A stretch of DNA of 64,000 bases from an uncultured Gammaproteobacteria bacterium (GTDB lineage: Bacteria; Pseudomonadota; Gammaproteobacteria; Arenicellales; JAANXG01). Of this stretch, positions 12,245-36,338 are shown piece after piece. The position numbers were made by a program, and so were the translations under genes. The DNA lies in NCBI GenBank assembly GCA_945787105.1, contig CALZGZ010000120.1:3159-67158 (forward strand), in the 5' to 3' direction. The stretch's first letter is position 1. Each line of letters opens with the position of its first letter. Under the pieces are notes generated by a model. That model made no database searches and was not told the DNA's origin. It saw nothing but the letters and a program-made list of their open reading frames with translations.

Positions 12245-12676
12245 TCATTGCCCCAAAGCTAGCGTACGTAGCAATAATTGTTTCGATGTACTGATCAACT
12301 CCACATTCGTTTGGTACGTGCGCGAAGCGGACATCATGTTCGCCATCTCCTCGATAGTGTTTACATTGGCATGGAAAACATAACCCTCGTCGTCCGCAAG
12401 CGGATGTTCAGGTTGGTAACGCCGGTGCGGCGGGGCGTCGCTCTCAACTATGCCTGCGACTCGGACACGGGCTAACGACTGCGCATCGAAATCGTTCATC
12501 ACGTCGATAAAACGAGGCGTCTCTGCAGCAAACACCGGATGTCGCGCACGATAGACCTGGCTGCTGTTTCCGGCCACCGCATCCGCATTGGCAAGGTTGC
12601 TCGCGATCACATTCAATCGCAACGCCTGGGCGCTCATCCCGGATCCCGCAACATCAAACACCGATAATAAGGACAT
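12245..12676 (-). CDS. flgC: flagellar basal-body rod protein FlgC
   Basis: 143 aa. SLLSVFDVAGSGMSAQALRLNVIASNLANADA; C-terminal SNVNTIEEMANMMSASRTYQTNVE. Confidence 0.95.
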   Translation of the reverse strand: MSLLSVFDVAGSGMSAQALRLNVIASNLANADAVAGNSSQVYRARHPVFAAETPRFIDVMNDFDAQSLARVRVAGIVESDAPPHRRYQPEHPLADDEGYVFHANVNTIEEMANMMSASRTYQTNVELISTSKQLLLRTLALGQ

Positions 12677-12678
12677 AC

Positions 12679-13089
12679 CTAATCCCCCTTAACCGCACTG
12701 AGCATCGACTTGAACTTACCTCCCAGCAGCCGCAGGCTGACCAGATAAGCAACGGAGTTCTTGGTAAACTCGCTTCGTTCCACGTCGGCATCCACAGTAT
12801 TCCCGTCCAACGAAGCTTGGGTAGGCACCCGGTATAACGCAGTCGTTCCAAACCACGACTGACCTGCGCCAGTGACATGGTTGGCGTGAGTCCGGATCAG
12901 GCGAATCGATTTTGCAACGTCGGTGTCCGGCTGGGATTGTCGCAGGACATCCTTGAAGTCGAGATCACGTGATTTGTAGTGCGGCGTATCAGCGTTGGCG
13001 AGGTTCGACGCCAGAATCTCGGCCCGCCGCACCCGGATGAGCAGGGCGTCGTCGTGTATTCCCATGGCGCTATCTAAGCTTATTCCCAT
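12679..13089 (-). CDS. flgB: flagellar basal-body rod protein FlgB
   Basis: 136 aa. LLIRVRRAEILASNLANADTPHYKSRDLDF. GGAGA Shine-Dalgarno 4-5 nt upstream of the ATG. Confidence 0.95.
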   Translation of the reverse strand: MGISLDSAMGIHDDALLIRVRRAEILASNLANADTPHYKSRDLDFKDVLRQSQPDTDVAKSIRLIRTHANHVTGAGQSWFGTTALYRVPTQASLDGNTVDADVERSEFTKNSVAYLVSLRLLGGKFKSMLSAVKGD

Positions 13090-13279: not shown

Positions 13280-13894
13280 CTACTTGGGCTTTTCGTGTCG
13301 AAGTTTTGCCGCCTGGCACTTTAGTATGTGTTTAATGAGGATGTCTCGATCGCTCTCATTGATCACTTCGAATTCAACCGCAATCCGATAAGGATGCGTG
13401 GGCAGATACCTCGATCGTCGCTCGCTGCGCACGACGGTCCCTCTGCACATAAGCGCAACGCAGGAGGACATCAGCAACAACTTCAGTTGCAGGTAAACAC
13501 CCGGGCTAATTCTCTCACCGGCGTAGAACGCCAGACCTCCGCCACTCAGACTTGCTTCCTTAACGCTGCCGTAGCCGGTTTCAACTTCCTGCAAAAGCAA
13601 CAGCCGGTACATCTCGTCCACACGAGACTCAAGATGCCGCAGATACTGCGCAACATCGGGCGATTGCTGCTCAATGCGAGAAAGTATCAAATCCTGGTTC
13701 CCGAGCAGACGCTTGGAGCCGCCCCGCAGTGAGTATAAGTCATCGGTATCGCCGTGATCGTCCTGCGCTTCACTGATGACGCGGTATTTGATGACGACTT
13801 GATCAGTGATCCTGAAATAACGCCGCCGCTCGCAACCCTCAAGATCCCCGTCCCGGTTGCGTGCTTGAACAGATTTTTCGATTCCGGTACTCAC
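13280..13894 (-). CDS. PilZ-domain (c-di-GMP receptor-type) protein with a long insertion between the two binding motifs
   Basis: 204 aa. RRxxxR motif (RRRYFR, aa 23-28) and a D/NxSxxG-like motif (SLSGGG, aa 115-120). Starts 20 nt after the motB stop, on the same strand. Confidence 0.7.
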   Translation of the reverse strand: MSTGIEKSVQARNRDGDLEGCERRRYFRITDQVVIKYRVISEAQDDHGDTDDLYSLRGGSKRLLGNQDLILSRIEQQSPDVAQYLRHLESRVDEMYRLLLLQEVETGYGSVKEASLSGGGLAFYAGERISPGVYLQLKLLLMSSCVALMCRGTVVRSERRSRYLPTHPYRIAVEFEVINESDRDILIKHILKCQAAKLRHEKPK

Positions 13895-16049: not shown

Positions 16050-16964
16050 ATGAACTATCTACTTTCCCCGCTGATTGGATCGAACACGCAGACTGCGGTG
16101 CCGGCGAGCGGAGCGGAAGCCGCTGTCCAGGCTGCGCGTTTGAACGAAGGGCAACTGCCGTTCCATTCACTGTTCAATCAGCAACTTCAGTTACTGCAGC
16201 AGCCTGGAATATTGGCGGGTCAGTCTCCTGCCATGATGGCACCCGCACCGTGGCAACCCTTTGCCATGGGCGGCCAAAGCTTGCCGCTGTCGTCCGCTGG
16301 CATAACGCCGTCTTCGGGTATCACTATAGAATCAGTGACCTACTCACGGATTTCAATGAACGGAAACGGAATTCTCAACACGGTCTACGATGGCTTGGAA
16401 CGGGATCCACAAAACGCCCTTGCCCAATTGCTGGCAAATATCGGTGAACCACCATCCAACGAACTATTGGTTACCGGGAAACCGGAAGGGGTAGCGTCGC
16501 ACACCGAGGCCGAGAAGTCGGATGCCAAGGCGGTGAACCGGTTGGCGCCCGGCTCCGACGAACTGAAGAACCCGGAATATCTCGGTGAAAAGATCGCGAA
16601 GGCGGTCGCCAATATCTCTACCGCGCAAGTTCCAAACGCCCAATTCGCTGTCGACCACCCAACGTATGGGCACGTTGAAGCAAGGGTCGATATCACGGAC
16701 GAGTCCGTCGATTTAGCGTTTGCGGTCCAGGACCCGGAGCTGCGCGCGGCACTCGAAGCGGCGAAGACGGCCATTGAACTCGCTCTGAGCAAACAAGGGT
16801 TAACCCTCGCCAAACTTGAAGTGGGGCCACCCCAGGACGTACCCGAAGTGATCACTCCGGGGACCCGCGAAGAATTGTTTGCATCCTACACTTCGCAACT
16901 CGACGCGGCATTGAACCGTATCATCAGTGACCTGGCGCTGGGTGTCCCCGACAATCGTGCGTAG
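16050..16964 (+). CDS. FliK-like protein (C-terminal flagellar hook-length control 'Flg_hook'-type domain)
   Basis: 304 aa. Low-complexity Q/P/A-rich N-terminal half. C-terminal GHVEARVDITDESVDLAFAVQDPELRAALEAAKTAIELALSKQGLTLAKLEVG resembles the FliK C-terminal domain. GGAG Shine-Dalgarno 7 nt upstream. Confidence 0.6.
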   Translation: MNYLLSPLIGSNTQTAVPASGAEAAVQAARLNEGQLPFHSLFNQQLQLLQQPGILAGQSPAMMAPAPWQPFAMGGQSLPLSSAGITPSSGITIESVTYSRISMNGNGILNTVYDGLERDPQNALAQLLANIGEPPSNELLVTGKPEGVASHTEAEKSDAKAVNRLAPGSDELKNPEYLGEKIAKAVANISTAQVPNAQFAVDHPTYGHVEARVDITDESVDLAFAVQDPELRAALEAAKTAIELALSKQGLTLAKLEVGPPQDVPEVITPGTREELFASYTSQLDAALNRIISDLALGVPDNRA

Positions 16965-18243: not shown

Positions 18244-18739
18244 GCTCTCACCGGACCAAATCGCACGTTACGCGGAGTCGCTTCTGACCTTATTCCAGCG
18301 GGAGCATGAGCTCTTGTGCTGTTTGCTTGAATCCATTGATTTGGAATTGGCCGCACTCCAGGCAACCGATGTTGCGGAGATTGAAAACGCCGCCGAGAGT
18401 AAACATCGCCTCATAGAAGAGTTGGAGCAACAGGACAAGGTACGTCGGGCACTGCTGACTGAGGCTGGGTTTATGTCCAATCCTTCCGGCATCGATCAGT
18501 TCATACTGCGATGCGACCCCGAACTCCGTCATGCTTTAAGAGGCACCTGGGACGAGATCCAGGCGCTAATCAGACGCTGTCAAAATGACAATACGAGAAA
18601 TGGTGAACTCAACGCCCTGTCTCAACGGATTGTGAAGCATATGTTGTCTTTTCTACGTGGAGAGTCGCCCGACAACAACGTCTATAACCAGGACGGTCAA
18701 GTTCCAGATATCACACAGAAAGTTTTGGGACGCGTCTAA
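18233..18739 (+). CDS. flgN: flagellar export chaperone FlgN family
   Basis: 168 aa helical protein. Its GTG start overlaps the flgM stop. The FlgN-like N-terminal coiled region and the gene order support the call. Confidence 0.75.
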   Translation: MDAKLSPDQIARYAESLLTLFQREHELLCCLLESIDLELAALQATDVAEIENAAESKHRLIEELEQQDKVRRALLTEAGFMSNPSGIDQFILRCDPELRHALRGTWDEIQALIRRCQNDNTRNGELNALSQRIVKHMLSFLRGESPDNNVYNQDGQVPDITQKVLGRV

Positions 18740-21090
18740 CGAGCCCGGTTGTAAAACGCGTCGATATTTTGTGCCGTGAGCGGCAACGGCCGGGCGACAC
18801 CAAATCCTTGCGCGAAGTTGACGCCTATACGGCGTAACATGTCCAACGCCGGTTTACTCTCCACGTATTCCGCTATGGTCTGCTTCCCCATCAACTGACA
18901 GATTTGATTGATTGCCTTCACCATCGCAAATTCAATTGGATCTTCCTCGATGTTCTTGATGAACAAGCCGTCGATTTTCACATAGTCGACCGGCAACGTC
19001 TTGAGATATGCGAACGACGATAAACCACTGCCGAAGTCATCTAGGGCGAACCGGCAACCGCGTGCTTGAAACACCTGCATGAACGATGCGGTATTGGTGA
19101 GATCGGCGACCGCGGCAGTTTCCGTGATTTCGAAGCAGATCCTGTCCGCAGGAATGCCTTTTTGGTCGAACTGTTCTTCGAGAAAAGTGAGAAACTCGCG
19201 ATCACCGATTGAGTGTCCGGAAAGATTGATCGAACACGAACGCAGCTTTTCAACATGACCAGGATGCTCGACCAACCACGTCAGGCTGGCATCCACGACC
19301 CAGCGATCGATGCGGGTTGACATGGAATAATGTTCGGCGGCGGGCAGGAATTCACCGGGCATTATCAGCTTCCCCGCCTCGTCCCGCATTCTGACCAGGA
19401 TTTCGTATCTGATACCTTGTTCGTAGTAAGGCAGTACGCTGACAATGGGCTGGAAAACAAGCTGAAACCGGTTTTCCTCCAAAGCCCGAGTGATCTCGGA
19501 GACCCACAGCATTTCGCGCCTCCGGCGCACCAACTTTACACCGTGTTCGTCATTGATATGGATGCGATTGCGCCCTTCGCTCTTCGCCACATAGCATGCC
19601 GTATCCGCGGCGCTGAGCACACTCGTAACGCTTTTCGTATGTTCGTTTATCGGAACCACGCCGATGCTGACACCCAAGCTGAATACGGAGGAATCCCAGG
19701 AAAACCGGAATGTTTGGATAGCTTGATACAATGAGTTGGCGATACGCGTCGCGTCTTCGGCTGAACAGTTTTTGATTAGCAATCCGAACTCATCCCCACC
19801 GAGTCTCGCAAGCACGTCTTCTCTCCGGACTTGTTTTGGCAACGACTGTGCCAGTCGACATAACAACGCGTCACCCGCCTCATGTCCACACGTATCGTTG
19901 ATGACCTTGAACTGATCCAGGTCAAGATAACAAAGGTAGTGCACGGATCGATGATTCTTCGTCTCTGCGATGAGCTGCTGCAGATTGACCTCAAACTGCT
20001 GCCTGTTTAACAGGCCAGTCAACGGATCGTGGATCGCGTTATAGGCGAGTTCATCCGATAACTTGTGCGTTTCGGTGACATCCTGGCCGGCACCACGGTA
20101 ACCACGAAACACCCCGTCTTTATCGTAAACCGGCTTTCCATTGACACTCAGTATTCGCGAGTTGCCGTCAGGCCAGCTTGCGACAAACTGGAAGTTTTTG
20201 AAGGGCCGGTGCAGTTCCAGGTCATGGACATGTTTTCCCCATCCTTCGATCTCGTTGTGGTTGGGGATGAATTGGTAGGGTTGCCCGATGACGGTGTGTG
20301 GATCGATGCCGGTGACCCGTTGATAGCGTTCCGAGAGGAAGGTCACGCCGAGATCCGGTCCGGTTTCCCAGAACCAGTCTGCGGCCACCTCAGCGAAGTC
20401 CTGGAAGCGCTCCTTGGCGTCGCGCACCTGGTTTTCGATCCGTTTGCGAACCTCGATTTCCTGCCTCAGGCGATCATTGGCATCGGCGATTTCGCGAGTC
20501 TTCGCATCAACCAGAGATTCCATATCATTGAACAGCCGATGGCTTTTCATCATCTGCCCGAGAAAGCTGCTGAACACCACAAGGGTGCGCCGGCGTGATG
20601 CTTGCTGATCACCCGGATCACGACTGTAGGCGTGGATGACCGCAACCTCGCCGCCGAAAATGCGGACCGGGACACACGCTGGATCATCGGCTTCATGGAG
20701 ACATTTCTGGAATGTTATCGGCGGATCGCCGAGACAGTCTCCGCACAGCGGCGAGAGCTCAACATCCGACAAACATGTTGGGTCGTCACCGGAATCCGCC
20801 GGTGCCAGGTCAGATTGACCACCGGGCTCTGTACATTGCGCATGCACATTGACAACAGTTTCAGCCTGGCAGTCACGCAGCAGAATGAACTTGCAGCGCT
20901 CGAAATCCAGACGTTCGACCACGGCCTCCGCGGCGCACGACAACAGTTCACGTTCCGTCACATTCCGCAGATCGATATCGGACAGCGCCCTGATCGCCGA
21001 TAAGGCCTCGACCAGTGTGTAATACTCAGTGCGAATACGACGTGCCGCCTCAATGCTCGCTAACGAACCGGATATGTGCGTCCTGGTCAT
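18736..21090 (-). CDS. GAF-like/PAS-GGDEF-EAL c-di-GMP turnover protein
   Basis: 784 aa. GGDEF motif RLGGDEFGLL. EAL-domain blocks YEILVR, FEITE, DDFGSGLSS, KIDG and QGF are all present. A PAS-like region (WFWETGPD...) sits upstream. Confidence 0.9.
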   Translation of the reverse strand: MTRTHISGSLASIEAARRIRTEYYTLVEALSAIRALSDIDLRNVTERELLSCAAEAVVERLDFERCKFILLRDCQAETVVNVHAQCTEPGGQSDLAPADSGDDPTCLSDVELSPLCGDCLGDPPITFQKCLHEADDPACVPVRIFGGEVAVIHAYSRDPGDQQASRRRTLVVFSSFLGQMMKSHRLFNDMESLVDAKTREIADANDRLRQEIEVRKRIENQVRDAKERFQDFAEVAADWFWETGPDLGVTFLSERYQRVTGIDPHTVIGQPYQFIPNHNEIEGWGKHVHDLELHRPFKNFQFVASWPDGNSRILSVNGKPVYDKDGVFRGYRGAGQDVTETHKLSDELAYNAIHDPLTGLLNRQQFEVNLQQLIAETKNHRSVHYLCYLDLDQFKVINDTCGHEAGDALLCRLAQSLPKQVRREDVLARLGGDEFGLLIKNCSAEDATRIANSLYQAIQTFRFSWDSSVFSLGVSIGVVPINEHTKSVTSVLSAADTACYVAKSEGRNRIHINDEHGVKLVRRRREMLWVSEITRALEENRFQLVFQPIVSVLPYYEQGIRYEILVRMRDEAGKLIMPGEFLPAAEHYSMSTRIDRWVVDASLTWLVEHPGHVEKLRSCSINLSGHSIGDREFLTFLEEQFDQKGIPADRICFEITETAAVADLTNTASFMQVFQARGCRFALDDFGSGLSSFAYLKTLPVDYVKIDGLFIKNIEEDPIEFAMVKAINQICQLMGKQTIAEYVESKPALDMLRRIGVNFAQGFGVARPLPLTAQNIDAFYNRAR

Positions 21091-21093
21091 GGC

Positions 21094-21969
21094 TTACACA
21101 AACACATCGACCAATTCCAGAACACTTGCGAGCTCCTTTACCGTTCGTTGCGAGACGGCGGCGACCTCATCCGGGGTTATCCGTAACTTCACCAGATCGG
21201 GAAACCGCAGCTCCGCGTCATCATCGCGGTTTAGTATTTGTGAGGCGACATTAGCGCTTGCGCCTACCAGCATACACGATGACCAAAATGTCCCCCAGTA
21301 ATCAACGTCCCGGTGCTTCTCGATCACCGTGCGTACATCTGACGAAAGCTGCCACCGTCGCGCCAATACACCACCGGCCTGTGTGTGATCGAACCCAAGC
21401 ATCTTGGATTCCGCGTCCATCAACGTGCATGCAGGATCTTGCGCTGCCTCTGCGAAGACCATGGACATATCGTCAGGGCACAAATGAGCCAGGACCAGCA
21501 CTCCGATGTTGTGCAGCAGACCGCACAGATAGCACTCATCCGGGTGGGGTCTGTGGAGCGGCGCAGTAATCCTTGCCAGCGAACGCGCCAGGGTTGCGCT
21601 CAACACGGCGCTTGACCAGAAAAGCCGTGAGTTGAAACCGGGGCATCGTCCCGGAGGAAACGAACCGCTCATAATTATGCCGATTACCAAACTCTTGACG
21701 AGGCTGAACCCGAGCACCCGCACGATCGCATCGTGAATCGACCGGCACGGGATACGCTGGGCGAAATACGCCGATCGGGCGAGCCCTAGGATCCGCGCCG
21801 CGACCTCAGGACAGGTCTCGATCGCGTCGGCGAGATCCCGGGCATTCGTGTCGTCGTTCAACACGCTCATCAAACGTTGATGACTTTCGTGTACCGGAGG
21901 GAGTTCGCGCCAACGGCGAATCCCATTCGCTATCTCCAGAGGGAGAACTGTCGAATGCATTGCGTTCAT
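21094..21969 (-). CDS. HDOD-domain signalling protein
   Basis: 291 aa. LPPVHESHQRLMSVL...ADAIETCPEVAARILGLARSAYF...LLHNIGVLVL blocks are typical of HDOD. Its stop lies 3 nt from the start of the GGDEF-EAL gene. Confidence 0.85.
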   Translation of the reverse strand: MNAMHSTVLPLEIANGIRRWRELPPVHESHQRLMSVLNDDTNARDLADAIETCPEVAARILGLARSAYFAQRIPCRSIHDAIVRVLGFSLVKSLVIGIIMSGSFPPGRCPGFNSRLFWSSAVLSATLARSLARITAPLHRPHPDECYLCGLLHNIGVLVLAHLCPDDMSMVFAEAAQDPACTLMDAESKMLGFDHTQAGGVLARRWQLSSDVRTVIEKHRDVDYWGTFWSSCMLVGASANVASQILNRDDDAELRFPDLVKLRITPDEVAAVSQRTVKELASVLELVDVFV

Positions 21970-22073: not shown

Positions 22074-22100
22074 TTTAGTTTTCGTCCAACTGGCCGACTA
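22074..22100 (+). promoter_or_regulatory. weak sigma28-like promoter candidate
   Basis: TTTAGTTT-N11-GCCGACTA, scoring 6/8 and 6/8 against the consensus with correct spacing. It ends 55 nt upstream of ATG 22155. Confidence 0.35.
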
Positions 22101-22154
22101 CTCTCATTAAAGAGCCGCATCGCGAAAAAGTCATCGACCTGAGAGGGATAGGGC

Positions 22155-22502
22155 ATGAATCGGGCTAACCATTGTCAAAACGACACCGACTTAGTGGCGA
22201 ACATCGCACGCATTCGGGGATGGAGTGAATTCGACGTCTTTAAGGCCGCACATAGGGACTGGTTCGAAACCCCCGCAACCGATCGGGAGATCGAGCGCTT
22301 CTTTGTGCCGTATCTGTTTTATCAAGAGGCGCCGCACTGGGTCCGTCATTACGCACGAAATGCTCAACCTAAACCGTCCAGCGACGCGTCCGTCCGCGAG
22401 TTTGACTCCTGTTTCGCGGTGGTCTGCGTGTGGGTGGCCTTGGCCAACGTAATTCGAACGTGCTTGCGGCAATCGAAATCGGACGCACTGCTGGTCGCCT
22501 GA
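22155..22502 (+). CDS. hypothetical small protein (C-terminal hydrophobic segment)
   Basis: 115-aa ORF with a GAGAGGGATAGGG purine-rich stretch just upstream of the ATG. I recognised no family. It is co-directional with the downstream FliK-like/FlhB-like pair. Confidence 0.4.
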   Translation: MNRANHCQNDTDLVANIARIRGWSEFDVFKAAHRDWFETPATDREIERFFVPYLFYQEAPHWVRHYARNAQPKPSSDASVREFDSCFAVVCVWVALANVIRTCLRQSKSDALLVA

Positions 22503-22620
22503 TGCCCGTAGATGCCACGCGCCGGGTCAACCCGATCCATAGTGCCGCACAGACACTGCGCGTTCAAAAACCTTGTATTGAACTGTATGCGTGTCGAGAT
22601 AACACCATGAGACCGTAGTC

Positions 22621-23802
22621 ATGGAATCCATATCAAACTCACTCGTCACCCAGCAGCTGCTCACGGTGTCGTCGAACCATGCCCAGCTCCGTGGGCTCGC
22701 GATCGGGCAGCAGCTCACGGGCACCGTTCTCACTGTGGCGCAACAGGGCACGGTTACACTCCAGGTGAACCAATCCACGTTCAACGCACGGACCACCTTA
22801 CCGTTGATTGCCGGTCAGACCCTGACGCTGGTTGTCGACAAGATTGGCCCGGAGATCCGGCTCAGAATACTGGACCAACAACTTCATTCCTCGAGTCTGG
22901 TCCAGGCAATTCGGCAACAACTGCCGAGACAGGGATCGGTCATTATGTTGTTGATGAATCTTCATCGTATCGCGCGTCAAACCGGCGGGATGCGACTACC
23001 CGGTTCGATTACGCAATTGGCCCGCCAGATCACGCAGGGACTGATGGAGGTCAGCGGTTCTTTGTCCGGGGAAATCGTGAAGCAGGCATTGTTGAACAGC
23101 GGTCATTTCCTGGAGCAACGCTTGTCGAAGCTACTTTCCGAGTTGCGTGACGGCACGTTGGAACGCGATTTCAAGGCAGGCCTAATGCGTCTGCGTACGG
23201 CGCTGTCGAGTGCTCTAGAGCAGATCAGGGCCCAATCCGGGCGTCACGAGAAAAAAACCAGCGTGCCTTCACGGCCGGGCCAACAAACGCGAGGGCCGGC
23301 AAATCCCAATCCGGTTTCGGCACGGGAAGCCGCGTCTCTCAAGGCATTGATCGAATTATCGCAACAGGTGGAAAGTGCGCTTGCCCGAATTCAACTGCAT
23401 CAACTCACCTCCTTGATCGAACAGGAGGGCGCGCGGTCCGTTTGGATGCTGGAACTGCCGGTGCGGGATGGCGAAACGGTACAACTCGTGCGTTTTCGTA
23501 TCGAAAAAGAGCAATCGCGGGACGAACAACAGCCAGATGGGTCTTTTTCTATCGTATTTTCGGTCCAATTACAGGCGCTTGGTGGGGTGCAGGCGCGGCT
23601 TACCTTGTCGGGCAGTTCGATTTCGGTGGTGTTGCAGGCGGAGCGCGATGGGACGGTAAAACTTGCCCGGGCCCATCTCGATGACCTGTGCGGACGCCTG
23701 CAGCAAACCGGGCTGACAGCGGAATCTGTCGTGTGTCTGCATGGACTTCATCTCGAGGAAACCCCAGACTTCCATACACCACTGGTGGATATTCAGGCGT
23801 GA
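22621..23802 (+). CDS. FliK-like hook-length-control family protein (second copy, different subfamily)
   Basis: 393 aa. C-terminal VWMLELPVRDGETVQLVRFRI...FSIVFSVQLQALGGVQARLTLSGSSISVVLQAERDGTVKLARAHLDDLCGRLQQTGL resembles the Flg_hook domain. Confidence 0.65.
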   Translation: MESISNSLVTQQLLTVSSNHAQLRGLAIGQQLTGTVLTVAQQGTVTLQVNQSTFNARTTLPLIAGQTLTLVVDKIGPEIRLRILDQQLHSSSLVQAIRQQLPRQGSVIMLLMNLHRIARQTGGMRLPGSITQLARQITQGLMEVSGSLSGEIVKQALLNSGHFLEQRLSKLLSELRDGTLERDFKAGLMRLRTALSSALEQIRAQSGRHEKKTSVPSRPGQQTRGPANPNPVSAREAASLKALIELSQQVESALARIQLHQLTSLIEQEGARSVWMLELPVRDGETVQLVRFRIEKEQSRDEQQPDGSFSIVFSVQLQALGGVQARLTLSGSSISVVLQAERDGTVKLARAHLDDLCGRLQQTGLTAESVVCLHGLHLEETPDFHTPLVDIQA

Positions 23803-24086
23803 ATAAGAACCGGCACAATGAGTATCGCAACGCGGTCGCGCTTCAGTATGAACGTGACCAAGGTGCGCCCCGGGTGGTGGCGAAGGGACGGGGACTGATC
23901 GCCGAACAAATCATCGGCATCGCCAAACAAGCGGGCGTGCCGCTGCACGAAGATCCCGAACTGGTCGGCCTGCTCGCGCAAGTCGAACTCGATGCCGAAA
24001 TCCCGGTGCAACTCTACCAGGCTGTGGCCGAAGTGTTGGCGTTCATCTACCAGCTGGAAAAATACCAGAACCCTTCAGCAATCTGA
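23799..24086 (+). CDS. free-standing FlhB C-terminal (FlhB_CC)-like protein
   Basis: 95 aa from a GTG that overlaps the upstream stop (GTGA). AVALQYERDQGAPRVVAKGRGLIAEQIIGIAKQAGVPLHEDPELVGLLAQVELDAEIPVQLYQAVAEVLAFIYQL aligns with the FlhB segment just after the NPTH cleavage site. NPTH itself is replaced by NEYR, and there is no TM region. Confidence 0.8.
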   Translation: MNKNRHNEYRNAVALQYERDQGAPRVVAKGRGLIAEQIIGIAKQAGVPLHEDPELVGLLAQVELDAEIPVQLYQAVAEVLAFIYQLEKYQNPSAI

Positions 24087-25076: not shown

Positions 25077-26282
25077 TTGGTTCTGCCCGCACCATCGCCG
25101 GCTCATCCTTCGCCACGCCTAGTTGACACCGGTCGCCGGGGCGCCGAGGCGTTTCTAGTCTTTGGCGGGACCAATCTGAGGGCAATTATTGCATTTTGCC
25201 GCGAATTGGAACGGCTGGGGCGGAGTTTTTCGATTATTACCCGCGGCGTAGAAGACGCGTTGCAAAAGACATGCTTCAAGAGCCACATCCATGCAGTGCG
25301 GCGTAAAGACCAGTTGGACTGGACCGATATCTCCCGCGCCATCACCCAGGCTCAACACCAAAGCGGCAAGCATTCCTTTTGTATCTGCCCCTCCTCCGAG
25401 GCGCTCAACCGGTTTTTGCTGGACCATCGCACCGAACTCGCGAAACTCGGATGCACACTGCCGCTCGTGAATGCCGAGACCTATCATCGGATATCCGATA
25501 AGTACAGCTTCCAGTCGATCTGCCAATCCAAAGGACAGCCCGTGCCACGCATGTACTTATCCGTTAATGCTCTCGAATTCCCCTGCGTGGCAAAGCCGTA
25601 TCGGAATCTCGTTGATGGCCGGATTCTGTATCCGGTGATATTGCGCGGCGATACCGACCTTCAGGCGTTCCACCACCAGTGCGATGCAGGAGAGTATTTC
25701 TATCAGGCTTACGTTGCCGGGCCCAGCCACTATCTTTTGTTCTATGTCCGGCGGGACGGAAGCGATGTCCGGTTTTCGCAGGAGAATCTGTTGCAACAGG
25801 CCGGAGGTAAATCGATCGTCATGGCGCGCAGCGCGAATCTGCATCAAGCGCCCATCGCCGAAAGCTACAAGTCCATATTAATCGGACTCGAATTTCACGG
25901 CCTGATAATGATCGAACTGAAAGGAGGCGGCGGTCACTATACGATGATCGAGGCCAACCCGAGGTTGTGGGGACCGCTGCAATTGTCAATGGACGGCGGT
26001 AGCAATCTCGTGCGGGCTTTCATACAGGATCAGTTGGCTGTCCGCGCAATGAGTTCGGGGGCCACCGATATCCGCAGCGCGCGATATTTCTGGCTGGGCG
26101 GCGTACTGCAAAACCTGCTATCACAACATGCTCTGCAGAAACACCCTGATAATCGTCGGCTGCGCTTTTCGGACATTGCTTGTGGCGTGTGCTCCGATAT
26201 CTACCTGCGTCCGGGCACCGCGCGATTATTTCTTCACGAGATCATCCACACGTTCACGATGCGAAGACGGAGGGAAATATGA
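25077..26282 (+). CDS. ATP-grasp fold ligase-like protein
   Basis: 401 aa. N-terminal Rossmann-like FLVFGGTNLRAIIAFCREL; central PCVAKPY...YFYQAYVAG...HGLIMIELKGGGGHYTMIEANPRLWG resembles ATP-grasp. TTG start with a weak RBS. Confidence 0.65.
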   Translation: MVLPAPSPAHPSPRLVDTGRRGAEAFLVFGGTNLRAIIAFCRELERLGRSFSIITRGVEDALQKTCFKSHIHAVRRKDQLDWTDISRAITQAQHQSGKHSFCICPSSEALNRFLLDHRTELAKLGCTLPLVNAETYHRISDKYSFQSICQSKGQPVPRMYLSVNALEFPCVAKPYRNLVDGRILYPVILRGDTDLQAFHHQCDAGEYFYQAYVAGPSHYLLFYVRRDGSDVRFSQENLLQQAGGKSIVMARSANLHQAPIAESYKSILIGLEFHGLIMIELKGGGGHYTMIEANPRLWGPLQLSMDGGSNLVRAFIQDQLAVRAMSSGATDIRSARYFWLGGVLQNLLSQHALQKHPDNRRLRFSDIACGVCSDIYLRPGTARLFLHEIIHTFTMRRRREI

Positions 26283-27154
26283 GGGCGGCGACCGACCTGA
26301 TAACGGAGTTGCGTGCGCTGTACTTCGATGGATCGAAACACACCTCGTATCAGAACGTGCCCGCCTTCGTTGAGGACGCGTTAGGCTTTCAGGTTTCGAT
26401 TGATGAGTGCTGGCGCAGTGACAAACCCCGCTACCGGTATCTGTTGGAACATTGTCCCCCGCAACCTGGTGAGCACGTCATCGACATCGGGGCAAATACC
26501 GGCTATTTCGCACTGAGCCTTGCACAACGCTTTACAAAGTGCCGCTTCACTGCTTACGAGTTCCATCCACAACACGTGGGATTCATGAGGCTTGTGCGCA
26601 TCGCATTTCAGCTGCACAACCTCGAAATCGAACCGAAACCGGTCAAGGTGGCGGATTCACACCGTCTGCCGCCCTACGATCTGGTGCTGTTTATGAACGT
26701 ATTGCACCACCTGGGTTGCGACTTCGACATCGACGTCGGGCGGAGCAACGACGAGTTCCGGGAAATGGCGGTGGCGATGCTAGGCGGTTTGAGGCAAGCG
26801 GGAAACCGAATGCTATTTCAGATGGGCACGAATCGTGGGGGGGATAAGTCCAATCCGATTGTCGACGCCCGAGACGAACCGCGCAAACTCGCCTATCTTA
26901 CCGACCTGCTCCTGGCCGCCGGGTGGGACATTGACCACATCGCCTTTGCACAAAAGCTCCCAGACGGTGACATCCGATTTCGAAACCTTCCGCGGACCCT
27001 GATCAAAGAAATCTGCGACCGGGCTCGCTCGTCCTCGGCAATCACTGCGAAGACCTTGCACGCACGAGCACCGTGGCTCGACCTGGACTGCTTTCCCGGT
27101 GAGTTTTACCGGCGGCCACTGATCGCATGCCGGGCGGTCGGAGGACCATCGTGA
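26279..27154 (+). CDS. class I SAM-dependent methyltransferase
   Basis: I moved the start to ATG 26279, which forms an ATGA overlap with the upstream stop and has GGAGGG 6 nt upstream. SAM motif VIDIGANTGYFALSLAQ; FMNVLHHL block. Confidence 0.75.
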   Translation: MRAATDLITELRALYFDGSKHTSYQNVPAFVEDALGFQVSIDECWRSDKPRYRYLLEHCPPQPGEHVIDIGANTGYFALSLAQRFTKCRFTAYEFHPQHVGFMRLVRIAFQLHNLEIEPKPVKVADSHRLPPYDLVLFMNVLHHLGCDFDIDVGRSNDEFREMAVAMLGGLRQAGNRMLFQMGTNRGGDKSNPIVDARDEPRKLAYLTDLLLAAGWDIDHIAFAQKLPDGDIRFRNLPRTLIKEICDRARSSSAITAKTLHARAPWLDLDCFPGEFYRRPLIACRAVGGPS

Positions 27155-28377
27155 GCATCAAGCGGCTCACCTTGTTCGGCGGTGATCCGGAATTCAGCCG
27201 CACGCTCCATGTCGGTACGCCAAACATCGGCGACACCAAGCGATTTCTAACGCGGGTCGAAAACCTGCTGAACAGGCGCGTACTCACCAACCGCGGTCCA
27301 CTGGTCCGCGAACTGGAGAGTCGCATGACTGAGCTGCTGAGCGTCAAACACTGCGTAACCATGAGCAACGGTACCGCGGCATTGGAAATCGCCACACGGG
27401 CCCTCAATTTCAAGGGCAACGCAATCGTCCCCGCACTGACGTTTGTCGCCACCGCCCATGCGTTGGAATGGCAACGCGTGCGGCCGATATTCGCGGACAT
27501 CATGCCCACCACACACCATCTGGACCCCCGCTGGATCAGACGCTTGGCCACTTCACTGACCAGCGGTGTCATCCCGGTGAATCTGTGGGGGCGCACCGTG
27601 GACATCGACGCGGTCGTGGCAGAGGCTACTATGCGCGACCTGGCCGTCGTGTTTGACTCCTCTCACGCTTTCGGTTGCACCTACAAGGGAAAGCCAGTCG
27701 GTGGATTCGGCGATGCGGAGATTTTTAGCTTCCACGCCACCAAATTCGTCAACACCTTCGAGGGCGGCGCGGTCACAACTAACGACGACGCGTTGGCGGA
27801 ACGGATCAGGTTGATGCAGAACTTCGGTTTCGCGGATCGCGATGAAGTCATACACGTGGGCATCAATGGAAAAATGAATGAAGTCCAAGCCGCCATGGGT
27901 CTCACGTCGGTAGAGGCAATGAAAGGCTTTATCTCACACAATCACGAGAACTATTGTGCCTATCTCGAGGGCCTCAGATACCTGGACGGTATCAACCTCA
28001 TTGAATATGACGCAGCGGAACGAAACAATTACCAGTACATAGTGATTGAAGTCGATGACGTCGTGACCGGACTACACCGGGACCAACTCATGCAGGTGCT
28101 ACATACCGAGGGCGTGGACGCCAGGCGTTACTTCTACCCGGGGTGTCATCGTATGGAACCCTACCGCTCGCGGCCAAAACCCAATGGCCAGGATCTTAAG
28201 CTGACGGACGAGATGCTTGCTCGCGTTTTGACACTGCCCACCGGGACCGCGGTGACCACGGGTGATATACGTCGCGTCGTTGCGCTGATGCAACGCATAC
28301 ACGAACGGCGAAACGACATCTCCCGCAAACTCGCGAAAAACGACCGCACTACTAGATTGACGAACTCGAGAAGGTGA
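27151..28377 (+). CDS. DegT/DnrJ/EryC1/StrS-family PLP-dependent sugar aminotransferase
   Basis: I moved the start to GTG 27151, which forms a GTGA overlap and has GGAGG 7 nt upstream. SNGTAALEIA and FDSSHAFG...EIFSFHATKFVNTFEGGAV are present, the latter holding the PLP-lysine context. Confidence 0.9.
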   Translation: MSIKRLTLFGGDPEFSRTLHVGTPNIGDTKRFLTRVENLLNRRVLTNRGPLVRELESRMTELLSVKHCVTMSNGTAALEIATRALNFKGNAIVPALTFVATAHALEWQRVRPIFADIMPTTHHLDPRWIRRLATSLTSGVIPVNLWGRTVDIDAVVAEATMRDLAVVFDSSHAFGCTYKGKPVGGFGDAEIFSFHATKFVNTFEGGAVTTNDDALAERIRLMQNFGFADRDEVIHVGINGKMNEVQAAMGLTSVEAMKGFISHNHENYCAYLEGLRYLDGINLIEYDAAERNNYQYIVIEVDDVVTGLHRDQLMQVLHTEGVDARRYFYPGCHRMEPYRSRPKPNGQDLKLTDEMLARVLTLPTGTAVTTGDIRRVVALMQRIHERRNDISRKLAKNDRTTRLTNSRR

Positions 28378-31300
28378 ACGACATGGCAGGTCAAATACTC
28401 GTAACCGTGGTGATTTCGACCTACAACCACGAACATTTCATCGGCCGCTGCATTGAAAGTGTTCAACTGCAGAACGTTTCGCCAATGGAGATCATTATTC
28501 TGGATGACTACTCCTCGGACAACACCCCCGGCGTCATCGAAGATTTCCGATGTGACAAACGAATCACCTACGTAAGAAACCCGGAAAACATCGGACCACG
28601 CCTGAACAACACCCGCGCCCTCGAAGTAGGGAGCGGACGATATCATGTCTGGTTGCATGGGGACGACTACCTGCTCCCCGGCCACCTCGAGCGGATCATC
28701 GGTGGTCTCGAACAACGTCCCGAGTGTTCCCTGGGATACGCGCCGCCGGTGTTTGTCGATGCGGCCGGGGAGACCTTACAAACCCCGGACCATCCCGGCC
28801 GTTCCAAACAGGATTATGCCGGTGGCCGCAATGAACTGGCGTTACTGCTCATTCATGACAACTATATTGTCCCTTCGTCCGTGGTGTTCCGGCGGAGCGA
28901 GTTAAACCGGGTCGGCAACTTCCATCCATCCATACCTGGCGCCGACTGGGACCTGTACACGCGTGTCGCGATACAAAATCCCAATTTCTACTACACGAAC
29001 ACCCTCGGCGTCGGCTATCGTTTTCACCCGGGGCAAGTATCGGTGCAGTTCTACGCCAATACCGATCCGCTCAAGGCACATCTCCATGTGGTAGAACAGG
29101 CCATGTATTCCAAAGCCGCCGGCCGGTTGCAGGGTCGCGAACTGGAGATCCTGGACTATCTCAACCGGCGCATCCAATCCTTTGGCGCGGCGGCCTGGAC
29201 ACAAGACCAAGACATACGCCGCGTCCGGGGAATGCTTGCGCGGCACTCATCAGTGCGAACGCCGGCGGCTGTTGGCCGAACGCCAACGATCAGTATCGTT
29301 ATTCCCTGCTACCGGCAGGCGCAGTACCTGACCGACGCGTTGGACAGCGTACTGGCTCAGGGCTTTGAAGACTGGGAGTGCCTGGTTGTCGATGATGGGA
29401 GTCCGGACGACACGGCGCAGGTAGTGACCAGATTCATTAAAGACCACGGCGAATCCAGAATCCGCTTGATCACCAAATCTAACGGCGGGCTCGCCAGCGC
29501 CCGTAACGCCGGCGCCGCGGAATCCCGCGGCCGCTACATCCTGCCGCTGGATGCTGACGACAAACTGCATCCGGACTACCTTACAGAAACGGTAGCCGTT
29601 CTTGATCGCGACCCTGAGACCGATATCGTTTATGTGGACGAACAGAATTTTGGTTTGGCCGGCCACGTGCATGTCAAAACCCAGGTATCCCTGGAAGCGC
29701 TCAAACAGCACAACGTCCACGACTATTGCAGCCTGTACCGCCGCAAAGTCTGGGAGCAAATCGGCGGATATTCGCCGGCCATGTATCTGGGCGGCGAAGA
29801 CTGGCAATTCTGGCTCGCGGCGTCGGCTCACGGTTTCCGGTCGCACCATCTGCGCAAGCCGCTGTTTTTGTACCGAAACCGCGAGCACACCATGGTCAGC
29901 GAGACCCAGGCACATCTCGGTCTCGTACGTGCACAGCTTGTCCTGCATCATCCAGGGATAGTTGGATCCGGTGAGATTCGCGCTGCAGAAGACACTGTGA
30001 AACGGACCCCGGCCCCACTTCGGGAAAAACTCCGGCAGGCGCTGCTTAAGCATACGGACAATCCTTTGTTGTGCCGGTTCAGCCAGCTGGCCGATGCGGG
30101 CGCACGAGACGCCCCGCTGGAACTGCCGTCACTCATTGATCCGCCGCTGGTTTCGGTCATCGTGACGACCATGGACCGTCCGGAGTTTTTAAAGGACGCG
30201 GTAGACTCGTTGGTGAGGCAAACCTACGAGAATTGGGAGGCGATCATCGTCAACGACGGTGGGGATGATATTGGCGATTGGATTACCACCGCCGATCCAA
30301 CCGGCCGGATTCATTACATTCGACATCCGCAAAATTGTGGGCTGTCGGCGGCACGGAACACCGGCATTTCGCTGTCCTCGGGAGAGATTCTGTGCTACCT
30401 GGACGACGATGACCGTTTGTTTCCGGACCACCTTGAAACCATTGTCGACGCCATGCAGACGAACAATACCAGTCTGGTCTATACCGAGGCCGAGTACGTG
30501 CGGGAACTCATCGAAGACGGCCAGCGCAGAGACCTGTCGCGCACGTCGCCGTATTCGCATATCGATTATTCCTTGGAACGGTTGCATATCGGTAACTTCA
30601 TCCCGGTAAACACCTGGGCCCACCGGCGGGAGCTGATCGCTTACGCCGGGGACTTCGACGTGACGCTCCATGCCCTCGAGGACTGGGACCTGTTGCTGCG
30701 GCTCGCGCGCATTACCACACCTGAGCACATCCCGAGGATCACGGCAGAGGTGCGGCTCCGTCCGGGAACGGTGAACGATAACATGAGCCAAAGAGCGCGC
30801 GGCGACTTACCCGCCCTGCATCGCAAGATCTATGCCCGCTACGCAATGCCGGGAAACCACAATGTGGACCGGCAACGAGAACGAATGCTAAAGCAACTCG
30901 AGACGGATCCGGCACCAACCAAACCCGCTGCAGCCACGCAACACCGCTATGACCAATGGCGGCAACGCCACACGCTAACTGAGAGCCAGGCACAGTACAT
31001 GGCGGAGCGAATGATGCTGACGTGGCAGGTACGGCCAAGCATTCAACTTATCGTCACCCACCAGGCGGGACAGGAGGACGCACTGGCCGACACCCTCGAC
31101 AGCCTGGGCCAGCAGTTGTACAAAGGGTGGGGCCTCAGCGTTGTGTCTCCGTGTCCCTGCCCCGACGACAGCTTCAATCGATTACCCAACCTGGAGTGGG
31201 TGGAGGCGCAAGGCGACCGCATCGCCGGTATAAACGGTGTCGTCGGCGATTCTCAGGCTGACTGGATCGTTCAACTCGACGCAGGCACGCGTTTTTCCCC

Positions 31301-33710
31301 GGACGCACTGTTTCGATGGGTCGATTACATCAATCTGCATCCGCATTGGCAGTTGTTCTACTGTGATGAGGACCGCGTTTCGGCCGATGGGATACACCAT
31401 GACCCGCTGTTCAAACCGGACTTTAACTTGGATCTATTGCGATCGACATCCTATATGGGAGATGTGGTACCAGTGCGACGCGAGTTGCTGGCCCGGCTCG
31501 ACGGCTACGGCAGGAGAACGGGTGCTGGTGTCTACGACATGGCGCTGCGCGTGCTCGATGCCGAGGGCGAGTCGATCATCGGTCACATTCCGGAGGTGTT
31601 GATTCACTGCAGAGACCGCCCGGACCCGCAACGCGACGAACAGACCGTCGCCGAGAATCGGCGTCTCACCGTTGAAGACCATTTGCAGCGCAACCACATC
31701 CGGGCAACCGTTGGCCACAATCTGGTCCCCGGTACGTTCTTCGTCGACTATGCCTTAAGCGAGTCGCCGATGGTGTCGATCATCATCCCCTACGGGGACC
31801 AAATCGACCCATCGCGGTTGTGTCTATCGAGCGTACTCGAAAAGACCGACTATCCCCACTACGAGGTCATCGTGGTCGACGATCGTGGTTCGGATTCGGT
31901 CGCCACAAGCGAAATTGGAATGATCAACCAAAGCGCGCGAAACGTACGCGTGGTGCGGAATCCCGAGCCGGGAGGGATCCCGGCGATGCTCAATTTTGCC
32001 GCGCGCGAGGCGCAGGGAGTGTTCCTATTGCTGTTGGATCCCGGAACCCAAGCCATACATGCCGAATGGTTGGCTCGCATGGTGGCGGTCGCACTACGGC
32101 CCGAAGTCGGCGCGGTGGGCGCCAGACTGGTCGATCTCAATGGCCGTATCAAACAGGCGGGACTCGTACTCGGCATGCAGGACGGCGTGGGCCGCCCGTT
32201 CGCCGGAGCCGACATGCAGGCCGCCGGATACCTGGGACGCCACCAGGTGACGCAGAATTACTCCGCGCTTGAAGCGGGGTGCATGCTTGTCAAGCGTGAT
32301 CAGTTCTTACAGCTCGGCGGCTTGAACGCGCAAGAATTCAAGCAATCGTATTTTGACGCCGATTTCTGCCTACGATTGCAGGACGTGGGATGCAAGTTGG
32401 TGTGGACGCCGTTTGCAACCTTGCTGCACCACGGGACCACGGCGGTGCAGGGACAACCGAGCCCTGCGCACAGCAATACCCTTGCTGCGGAACTCACCGC
32501 CTTCCAGCAGCGTTGGCTAACCAGGCTCGCCAGCGATCCGGCGCACAACCCCAATCTGTCACTGGTGGAACAGACTATGCAAATCGAGGTCGAGCTCGCC
32601 GTTCCGTGGCTCGACAGACATCATCCCCGCCCACGGATCTGGGCCTTCCCGCTCAACGACCAGGGTGTCGGACAGTACCGGGTGCGTCAACCGCTTGACG
32701 CTTTGGATCGTGCGGCGCTCGCCGAGCATGCGTTGTTGCCACCCCACGAAAGGGTCGAAAGGGCACGCGTGCCAACGGTGTGCGAACTCGCCCGGGCCGA
32801 TGCCGATACGTTACTGATTCAACACGGATTCAGTGATCTGTTTCTGCGCTGGCTGCCAAAATATCGTGCACTGGATATCGCGTTTCTGGTATTCGGGTTG
32901 GACGATAACCTGCTCGAGATCCCCGAAACAAACGACCGGCGCGATAAACTACCGGCGGATCTCGAGCGGCGCATTCGGGAGGCCTTGTCCCATTGTCACC
33001 GGCTCATCGTGCCGACAGAACCTCTGGTAGAGGTTTACCGGAGATTCATCGACGACGTTCGCGTCGTTCCCAACCAACTTGAACAATGGCGGTGGCAACA
33101 CCTGCGGCCAGACCGTCGGCCAATGAAGGGCAGCGGCGGAAAGCCGCGCGTGGGCTGGGTCGGCGCCCAGCAGCACCGCGGTGATCTGGCTTTGCTGGCG
33201 CCGGTAATGAAGGCCCTGCACGAGGACGTCGATTGGGTCATGATGGGGATGTGTCCCGCGGCGCTTCGGCGCTACGTGCGCGAATTTCACCAACCTGTGC
33301 CCTATAGCCGTTATCCGGAAAAGCTGTCCTCGTTGAACCTGGATCTGGCCGTGGCGCCCCTGGAAATCAATGTGTTCAACGAATGCAAAAGCGATCTGCG
33401 CATCCTCGAGTACGGGGCGCTCGGCTGGCCGGTCGTTGCCACGGACATACATCCGTACCGTGGTAAACCGGTCACCCGCCTGTCGAATAGCGCAACCTTG
33501 TGGATCGACACGATCCGCGAGCGGATCAATGATCTAGAGGCGCTGGCCGCCGAGGGCAGAGCGCTGCGCGAGTGGGTTCACCAACATCGCTTCCTGGAAC
33601 ATCAGCTCATGCCGTGGTTCGAGGCAATGTTATCTGATGCGGTGCTCGGGCGCTTTCCGATGACTTATGGGAACGAGCAGAATGGTATTCCTTCCGCCGT
33701 GGCAAGATGA
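28374..33710 (+). CDS. giant multi-module glycosyltransferase (five GT2/GT-A-type modules + one GT-B-like C-terminal module)
   Basis: 1778 aa. The GTG start overlaps the aminotransferase stop (GTGA). Repeated GT2 signatures: VVISTYN..ILDDYSSDNT..HGDD; SIVIPCY..VVDDGSPDDT..LDADD; SVIVTTM..IVNDGGDD..LDDDD; LDAG..YCDED..FKPDFNLDLL; SIIIPYG..VVDDRGSD. The C-terminal CKSDLRILEYGALGWPVVATD is GT1/GT4-like. Confidence 0.9.
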   Translation: MNDMAGQILVTVVISTYNHEHFIGRCIESVQLQNVSPMEIIILDDYSSDNTPGVIEDFRCDKRITYVRNPENIGPRLNNTRALEVGSGRYHVWLHGDDYLLPGHLERIIGGLEQRPECSLGYAPPVFVDAAGETLQTPDHPGRSKQDYAGGRNELALLLIHDNYIVPSSVVFRRSELNRVGNFHPSIPGADWDLYTRVAIQNPNFYYTNTLGVGYRFHPGQVSVQFYANTDPLKAHLHVVEQAMYSKAAGRLQGRELEILDYLNRRIQSFGAAAWTQDQDIRRVRGMLARHSSVRTPAAVGRTPTISIVIPCYRQAQYLTDALDSVLAQGFEDWECLVVDDGSPDDTAQVVTRFIKDHGESRIRLITKSNGGLASARNAGAAESRGRYILPLDADDKLHPDYLTETVAVLDRDPETDIVYVDEQNFGLAGHVHVKTQVSLEALKQHNVHDYCSLYRRKVWEQIGGYSPAMYLGGEDWQFWLAASAHGFRSHHLRKPLFLYRNREHTMVSETQAHLGLVRAQLVLHHPGIVGSGEIRAAEDTVKRTPAPLREKLRQALLKHTDNPLLCRFSQLADAGARDAPLELPSLIDPPLVSVIVTTMDRPEFLKDAVDSLVRQTYENWEAIIVNDGGDDIGDWITTADPTGRIHYIRHPQNCGLSAARNTGISLSSGEILCYLDDDDRLFPDHLETIVDAMQTNNTSLVYTEAEYVRELIEDGQRRDLSRTSPYSHIDYSLERLHIGNFIPVNTWAHRRELIAYAGDFDVTLHALEDWDLLLRLARITTPEHIPRITAEVRLRPGTVNDNMSQRARGDLPALHRKIYARYAMPGNHNVDRQRERMLKQLETDPAPTKPAAATQHRYDQWRQRHTLTESQAQYMAERMMLTWQVRPSIQLIVTHQAGQEDALADTLDSLGQQLYKGWGLSVVSPCPCPDDSFNRLPNLEWVEAQGDRIAGINGVVGDSQADWIVQLDAGTRFSPDALFRWVDYINLHPHWQLFYCDEDRVSADGIHHDPLFKPDFNLDLLRSTSYMGDVVPVRRELLARLDGYGRRTGAGVYDMALRVLDAEGESIIGHIPEVLIHCRDRPDPQRDEQTVAENRRLTVEDHLQRNHIRATVGHNLVPGTFFVDYALSESPMVSIIIPYGDQIDPSRLCLSSVLEKTDYPHYEVIVVDDRGSDSVATSEIGMINQSARNVRVVRNPEPGGIPAMLNFAAREAQGVFLLLLDPGTQAIHAEWLARMVAVALRPEVGAVGARLVDLNGRIKQAGLVLGMQDGVGRPFAGADMQAAGYLGRHQVTQNYSALEAGCMLVKRDQFLQLGGLNAQEFKQSYFDADFCLRLQDVGCKLVWTPFATLLHHGTTAVQGQPSPAHSNTLAAELTAFQQRWLTRLASDPAHNPNLSLVEQTMQIEVELAVPWLDRHHPRPRIWAFPLNDQGVGQYRVRQPLDALDRAALAEHALLPPHERVERARVPTVCELARADADTLLIQHGFSDLFLRWLPKYRALDIAFLVFGLDDNLLEIPETNDRRDKLPADLERRIREALSHCHRLIVPTEPLVEVYRRFIDDVRVVPNQLEQWRWQHLRPDRRPMKGSGGKPRVGWVGAQQHRGDLALLAPVMKALHEDVDWVMMGMCPAALRRYVREFHQPVPYSRYPEKLSSLNLDLAVAPLEINVFNECKSDLRILEYGALGWPVVATDIHPYRGKPVTRLSNSATLWIDTIRERINDLEALAAEGRALREWVHQHRFLEHQLMPWFEAMLSDAVLGRFPMTYGNEQNGIPSAVAR

Positions 33711-36324: not shown

Positions 36325-36338
36325 GGGGAGATCCGCTG

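Follow-up and report, generated by a model that had tools for sequence, protein, structure and literature searches.

The module described here, which we call orf115-fliK2-flhX and which lies in a 64-kb stretch of DNA from an uncultured gammaproteobacterium, finds its closest described system in the fliK2-flhX pair of Pseudomonas, where a gene for a FliK-like protein (Flg_hook domain in the C-terminal part) is followed by a gene for a protein of about 100 amino acids (aa) resembling FlhB_CC (i.e., the part of the export-gate protein FlhB that follows its autocleavage site). In P. putida the two genes (PP_4328-PP_4329) form one transcription unit that depends on FliA (class IV), and their function is stated to be uncharacterised. 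In P. aeruginosa the upstream gene codes for a 492-aa "FliK" and the downstream one for a 111-aa protein of the "EscU/YscU/HrcU family"; the two overlap by 4 nucleotides (nt) and are located next to ccmA. The small protein of P. putida has been termed an orthologue of H. pylori FlhX (HP1575), a free-standing homologue of FlhB_CC from the family to which the protein studied here belongs, and reported to be a "spare part" that permits flagellar export when FlhB_CC is deleted (Wand et al., 2006). FlhX is routinely counted among flagellar export components, and an flhX-fliK pair has been mentioned for Nitratiruptor. To our knowledge, flhX of H. pylori is not adjacent to fliK, and its deletion alone is said to have little phenotype in that species.

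The stretch that we analysed (hereafter the window) comprises 64,000 nt of contig CALZGZ010000120.1, a flagellar/chemotaxis region in which the module is embedded among flg, mot and che genes. The features on which the argument rests are the following:

22074-22100, plus strand: sigma28 (FliA)-type promoter motif, TTTAGTTT-N11-GCCGACTA, 54 nt 5' of the first ATG
22155-22502, plus strand: gene for a 115-aa protein (orf115), ATG start
22621-23802, plus strand: fliK2, 393 aa, FliK-like with a type III secretion substrate specificity switch (T3S4) domain
23799-24086, plus strand: flhX, 95 aa, GTG start, a free-standing FlhB_CC paralogue of the FlhX / flhB_rel / YlqH family
23799-23802, plus strand: GTGA start/stop overlap of 4 nt, flhX GTG on fliK2 TGA, a geometry that, as read from the sequence, is that of translational coupling
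16050-16964, plus strand: second gene with a Flg_hook domain (at aa 192-259), 304 aa, outside the operon

We consider it very likely that orf115-fliK2-flhX is a late-class flagellar operon and the counterpart of the FliA-dependent fliK2-flhX of Pseudomonas. The original prediction, made from the letters of the window alone, had recognised three co-directional genes behind a sigma28-like motif and a GTG start overlapping the stop codon of the FliK-like gene, all of which we recovered, and it had implied that such a pairing was new. This last point did not hold up: FlhX had been named in 2005 (Pallen et al.), and the pair has been published as the FliA-dependent operon of P. putida, so the window carries a further instance of a kind of flagellar operon already described. 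The remark that the pairing lacks an established function does stand. The window differs from Pseudomonas in that its operon opens with the extra 115-aa gene, in that its FliK2 is shorter (393 vs 492 aa), and in its position between an HDOD/GGDEF-EAL gene pair and a putative glycosylation island rather than near ccm genes. Both window proteins are homologous over their full length to their P. aeruginosa counterparts, FlhX with 44% identity and FliK2 with 29% over aa 62-375 (340-aa alignment, E 1e-19).

The record of the metagenome-assembled genome that contains the window sequence (NCBI GCA_945787705.1) has the same three gene calls. The complete module, including the 4-nt overlap, was found in four related genomes (the window and the loci L091, L092 and L093), and an overlap of the same length recurs in P. 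aeruginosa and in Bacillus ylqG-ylqH. Pairwise comparison of the related copies with the window gave ratios of non-synonymous to synonymous substitution rates (dN/dS) of 0.31-0.44 for the 115-aa gene, 0.18-0.24 for fliK2 and 0.19-0.22 for flhX, values which indicate that purifying selection acts on all three.

Conservation also extends to the promoter motif. When the upstream regions of the four orthologous loci were aligned (59% mean identity), CTTyAGTTwT and CGACTA were conserved at fixed spacing with diverged flanks, and the start-codon region was a further conserved block besides these two boxes. A relaxed sigma28-like pattern had 2 matches in the 64-kb window vs 0.32 expected, and P. aeruginosa fliK2 has a comparable element upstream (TAAAGTCG-N11-GCCGCTAT); the fliK2 promoter of P. 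putida, as noted, is FliA-dependent. The footprint is as expected of FliA promoters, and we treat it as a putative FliA promoter for the window operon. A scan for sigma70 promoters returned zero sites, and terminator-like sites occurred at chance level.

The identity of the small protein is supported by profile, sequence and structure comparisons. FlhX aligns with positions 261-335 of the 335 in PF01312, i.e., the last 75 only (E 8e-22), and its best NCBIfam model is TIGR00789 (flhB_rel, "FlhB-like flagellar biosynthesis protein"; 96.9 bits, E 5.8e-28, below the curated cut-off of 117.35). A phmmer search against the PDB aligned its aa 12-90 with residues 5-85 of 3b0z_B, the post-cleavage fragment of Salmonella FlhB (E 1.5e-14), which bears out the predicted match to the FlhB segment behind the autocleavage site. 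In this alignment N7-E8-Y9-R10 of FlhX fall on N269-P270-T271-H272 of FlhB, so that NPTH is indeed replaced by NEYR; the equivalent positions are variable across 81 members of the FlhX family. The absence of a membrane domain was likewise borne out, both by the restriction of the PF01312 match to the C-terminal 75 positions and by the lack of any hydrophobic segment in FlhX (maximum Kyte-Doolittle score over 19 residues, KD19, of 1.2). The AlphaFold2 (AF2) model has a mean predicted local distance difference test score (pLDDT) of 73, and its top Foldseek matches were 3b0z_B, 3b1s_B, 5cul_B and 6ejp (probability 1.00, template modelling score 0.54-0.65); the closest PDB structures are B chains, the fragments after the cleavage site, of FlhB, PscU, YscU, EscU, Spa40 and SpaS.

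Relatives of FlhX are numerous (1095 with E <= 0.001), and the 120 listed among them are 89-119 aa long and all match PF01312 only. An alignment of 26 relatives has 24 invariant columns; the proteins begin some 10-17 residues ahead of the AVAL strand, and NPTH is present in none of them. Ranked by BLASTP bit score, the window protein is closer to stand-alone FlhX proteins (80.9 for Cupriavidus FlhX, 71.6 for Bacillus YlqH and 66.6 for P. aeruginosa FlhX) than to full-length FlhB (59.3 for that of P. aeruginosa). FlhX and FlhB_CC have the same fold, are 45-48% identical in the best aligned stretches and have identical pocket residues (see below). By contrast with FlhB, FlhX lacks a predicted transmembrane domain, FlhB_CN, the NPTH site and the C-terminal extension, and appears to be made as a separate polypeptide from a late-type promoter. 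Because it has neither a membrane domain nor NPTH, it is not FlhB proper; it is a soluble, stand-alone FlhB_CC paralogue, for which cleavage is not needed and which comes without the FlhB_CN strand.

What the family has kept may bear on its function. In FlhB, residues A286, P287, A341 and L344 form the hydrophobic pocket in which rod/hook-type (early) substrates dock (PMC9307174). The matching residues of the window protein are A23, P24, A77 and L80, and they are conserved in 80-81 of 81 FlhX sequences. By this comparison, FlhX strictly keeps the residues of the early-substrate pocket of FlhB_CC.

The 393-aa protein had been called FliK-like, and its match to Pfam Flg_hook (PF02120) at aa 301-374 (E 2e-10, 40.7 bits vs a cut-off of 29.8) agrees with this. 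It belongs to a family distinct from canonical FliK, with the T3S4 switch domain alone in common. Specifically, a profile hidden Markov model (HMM) built from 78 FlhX-adjacent proteins, with the window protein left out, matched window FliK2 over aa 10-374 (E 6e-20) and P. aeruginosa FliK2 (E 3.5e-13), and matched the 304-aa protein encoded at 16050-16964 in the T3S4 domain only. BLASTP cross-comparison separated the same two groups, pairing window FliK2 with P. aeruginosa FliK2 (E 1e-17) and the 304-aa protein with P. aeruginosa FliK (E 5e-4) with no cross matches. The N-terminal and middle parts of FliK2 matched no Pfam family, and no hydrophobic segment was detected in the protein.

The AF2 model of FliK2 (mean pLDDT 67, from a 13-sequence alignment) predicts a beta domain at aa 11-84 and helices at aa 92-211 in the N-terminal half (block pLDDT 54-85), followed by a disordered, Pro-rich linker, a long helix at aa 234-269, the T3S4 domain at aa 274-374 and a disordered tail; residues 1-11 and 379-393 are predicted to be disordered, and the helical middle domain carries the motifs NSGHFLEQRL and DFKAGLMRL. 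A Foldseek search with this model placed the PscP switch domain (5cuk) and FliK_C (2rrl) on top, both weak matches (best E 0.02, none <= 0.001). The long, largely disordered ruler N-terminus of canonical FliK is not predicted for FliK2 at the moderate confidence of the model. With a predicted folded N-terminus and membership of a separate family, FliK2 is not a canonical FliK. Its tail, PLVDIQA, resembles GLVDYYA of P. aeruginosa FliK and RWVDETA of P. aeruginosa FliK2 ([L/W]VDxxA).

The probable canonical fliK is the second Flg_hook gene. The N-terminal half of the 304-aa protein is of low complexity and rich in Q, P and A, and the gene is directly 5' of flgA-flgM-flgN, a position kept in L091 and L092. 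We take it for a probable canonical fliK, short and unusually placed. The "auxiliary" status that the original prediction had given to the pair fits with this canonical-type gene in the window and with P. aeruginosa, which in addition to the pair has a canonical fliK (before fliL) and a separate flhB.

How general is the association of the two genes? A survey of synteny between small FlhB-domain proteins and FliK-like genes had been proposed together with the original prediction, and we carried it out on the 80 best of at least 574 relatives found in a scan with an FlhX alignment (one genome per species; loci L006-L085). Most of these loci came from Rhodocyclales, Burkholderiales, Nitrosomonadales, Acidithiobacillus and Methylococcales; a few were from Hydrogenedentota, and Latescibacterota and Geomonas contributed one each. 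A co-directional open reading frame (ORF) ending at the start of flhX was present in 78 of the 80 loci, and in 75 of these 78 it matched Flg_hook (9 of them with a match to HpaP as well); an flhX start codon overlapped the upstream ORF by 4-35 nt in 62 of the 78. Among the Beta- and Gammaproteobacteria sampled, the FliK2-FlhX pair, with its coupled arrangement of start and stop codons, is almost obligatory. The gene in front of the FliK-like gene, by contrast, varies between lineages: the 65 upstream genes scanned from other loci included 27 FliT, 21 FliS, 5 DUF2802 and 2 PilZ.

Some lineage-specific arrangements were apparent in the same sample. In most of the sampled Betaproteobacteria fliS or fliT stands immediately upstream of a FliK2-family gene and flhX (48 of the 65 upstream genes), and in Acidithiobacillus the order is PilZ - DUF2802 - Flg_hook - FlhX, with the DUF2802 (FlrD-like) gene preceding the pair in this genus and a few others. 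A tblastn search of the Cupriavidus records (which are unannotated) for a second FliK-type gene matched one place.

Outside the Proteobacteria, Bacillus YlqH (93 aa, FlhB-like) is 49% identical to window FlhX, and the start of its gene shares 4 nt with the preceding one, ylqG. The latter encodes a 567-aa protein annotated as a glycosyl transferase, and the locus is found among housekeeping genes. We considered YlqG as a hidden FliK-like protein and rejected the idea: the protein gave no match to Flg_hook, and hhalign against the FliK2-family profile gave a probability of 0.8%, in the N-terminal region. In the Bacillus velezensis ylqG-ylqH locus (L096, 3304-5285), YlqG ends in RKVDVKI and shows a weak N-terminal resemblance to the beta domain of the FliK2 family. 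Among injectisomes, HpaC and HpaP are cytoplasmic T3S4 proteins that act on the C-terminal domain of SctU, and HpaC is reported to bind HrcU_C (PMC3040844). These proteins act on the full-length gate protein, and a free SctU_CC paralogue is not involved.

The first gene of the operon has a different distribution. Its 115-aa product had been labelled an "orphan", a label that no longer applies, as its family, so far undescribed, numbers at least 287 cluster representatives (full HMMER search, E <= 1e-3). Members share the N-terminal motif SEFxxFxxAYxxWxGxxAxxxxxERxFVxYLFxxxxPxWVRH and usually have a C-terminal hydrophobic stretch, which in the window protein spans aa 86-104 (KD19 2.06) and is a probable membrane anchor; neither Pfam nor NCBIfam yielded a match for the protein. 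The 24 metagenome loci that we inspected (L099-L122) had neither FliK2 nor FlhX and no enrichment of flagellar genes, and phmmer, applied to the genes in front of FliK-like genes at 67 loci, detected no relatives of the protein. The downstream neighbour of one homologue is unrelated to FliK2. As the family is unlinked to flagella elsewhere, its membership of the operon is a lineage-specific feature. A role as a module-specific, tail-anchored switch inhibitor like Fluke (Flk) was considered for the protein and rejected as a general one, since the family elsewhere occurs away from FliK2, FlhX and flagellar genes. Two copies of the family are present in each of four metagenome loci (L104, L109, L112 and L121).

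Recent work on Salmonella offers a frame for what the pair may do. A 2026 study found that the gate is held in early mode by the cleaved C-terminal part of FlhB, FlhB_CCD, which is required for the export of early substrates, and that FlhB_CCD is lost in a FliK-dependent manner at hook completion, with roles implicated for the T3S4 fold and the five C-terminal residues of FliK (PMC13344023; FlhX goes unmentioned in that paper). Given the identity of the operon, we tentatively favour, as a possibility, a reading in which FlhX is a replacement FlhB_CC module and FliK2 its dedicated switch partner. At an export gate that lacks its own CC domain or has lost it by ejection, FlhX would dock on FlhB_CN and so restore the docking site for early substrates, as in the "spare part" role reported for H. 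pylori. FliK2, its synthesis coupled to that of FlhX, would use its T3S4 domain and tail to bind FlhX and govern the loading or removal of FlhX, much as FliK does with FlhB_CC. Once sigma28 is on, the pair would add a further level of control to the switch in secretion specificity.

Several observations weigh against this replacement-module reading. The 96% linkage between the two genes describes a top-scoring, mostly Beta- and Gammaproteobacterial subset and is not a global figure, and no Flg_hook domain was detected in Bacillus YlqG. We found no full-length FlhB within the 64-kb window. If FlhX served as a spare part for the first hook-basal body, sigma28-dependent timing would be a poor fit. 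Most FlhX-adjacent FliK-like proteins of Betaproteobacteria lack the [L/W]VDxxA tail, which is therefore not a universal contact. Finally, confidence in both AF2 models is moderate (pLDDT 67 for FliK2 and 73 for FlhX).

An alternative, which takes up the decoy role suggested in the original prediction and which we regard as unlikely, is that FlhX remains in the cytoplasm as a soluble decoy or buffer without ever docking at the gate. Through its conserved pocket and FliK-binding surface it would capture remaining rod/hook-type substrates, canonical FliK or FliK2 after the late genes have come on, and would so sharpen the switch or render it irreversible. Such a role would be compatible with a protein that has no membrane segment and retains the early-substrate pocket, with a late, sigma28-type promoter, and with synthesis coupled to that of a T3S4 protein, which suggests a stoichiometric soluble complex. 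However, H. pylori FlhX reportedly permitted export when FlhB_CC was deleted (Wand et al.), which implies that FlhX can act at the gate; moreover, early-substrate export in Salmonella already stops after removal of the CCD (PMC13344023), so that a decoy seems redundant.

A bolder form of the replacement-module reading, to which we give a rather small chance, is that the pair re-arms the gate. Canonical FliK would eject FlhB_CC at hook completion, as in the Salmonella model (PMC13344023), sigma28-driven FlhX would then refill the vacated FlhB_CN site so that the early dock returns, and the old gate would again export rod/hook-type proteins for repair or regrowth until FliK2 flips it to late mode.

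It is also conceivable, if very unlikely, that FliK2 is a secreted second ruler or late-class regulator and FlhX its cytoplasmic chaperone or targeting factor. Small partner genes that overlap substrate genes are typical of type III secretion chaperone pairs, FliK2 retains the T3S4 domain and a FliK-like C-terminal tail, and its residues 1-11 and 379-393 are predicted to be disordered. Against secretion, the remainder of the N-terminal half is predicted to consist of folded beta and helical domains rather than a long disordered ruler, the FlhX model has the fold of FlhB_CC and not that of a type III secretion chaperone, and a canonical-type FliK is already encoded in the window. That the module is a functionless remnant of duplicated flhB and fliK, or flhX a mis-called small ORF, is scarcely credible in view of the dN/dS of 0.18-0.24 for fliK2 and flhX, the 1095 relatives and 24 invariant columns of the FlhX family, and the adjacency and overlap conserved across orders; the slight phenotype said to follow flhX deletion in H. 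pylori is the one point in its favour.

The surroundings of the operon in the window contain further genes related to motility and its control:

flgL to flgD, minus strand: flagellar genes, then two ORFs at 12245-13089, where flgC/flgB would usually be expected
13280-13894: PilZ gene, next to motB, then motA
18736-21969, minus strand: HDOD and GGDEF-EAL gene pair, divergent from the module
25077-33710, plus strand: island with an ATP-grasp-like gene, a methyltransferase, a DegT-type aminotransferase and a 1778-aa protein with multiple GT2 glycosyltransferase domains, kept in L091 and L092
37698-39008, plus strand, and 43230-44078, minus strand: HDOD proteins further on

There are three HDOD-domain proteins in the 64 kb, one of them fused to a cyclic nucleotide (cNMP)-binding domain, and the HDOD, GGDEF-EAL and PilZ genes together suggest dense control of motility by cyclic di-GMP. 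Downstream of the module, a gene for an HPP membrane protein is followed by the glycosyltransferase island at 25077-33710, which is possibly a flagellin glycosylation island. A gene for an 825-aa methyl-accepting chemotaxis protein (MCP) adjoins one for an EB_dh (ethylbenzene dehydrogenase-like, haem-binding) protein (33847-37202, minus strand), a pair kept in L093, and further along are MCP genes and cheA-cheW-MCP-cheB-cheR. The other match to the relaxed sigma28-like pattern, AGTTTTCGCGCTTCATGTCGATAA (40095-40072, minus strand), is about 50 nt 5' of a co-oriented, Cys-rich ORF of 123 aa (39651-40022, minus strand; CWDIKQCGRE...) in the chemotaxis region, after which comes a gene for a CheY-like response regulator (39099-39491, minus strand). 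Judging from this arrangement, the two genes may form another FliA-dependent operon. The PBP1B encoded in the window has its best named relatives in Arenicellales, a "Gammaproteobacteria bacterium" and Sulfuricaulis (54-57% identity), which places the source among uncultured Gammaproteobacteria.

The locus itself adds little, being one more instance of a pair for which Pseudomonas has already supplied both the name and the evidence of FliA dependence. New from the survey are the near-obligatory pairing in the Beta- and Gammaproteobacteria sampled, the status of FliK2 as a full-length family of its own, and the preservation of the FlhB_CC pocket in FlhX. Should the re-arming idea be true, a supposedly irreversible export switch would be reversible in the many bacteria that have the pair. 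Given the report that FlhB_CC is removed in a FliK-dependent manner in Salmonella (PMC13344023), FlhX and its FliK-like partner are a testable candidate for modulating or resetting the switch.

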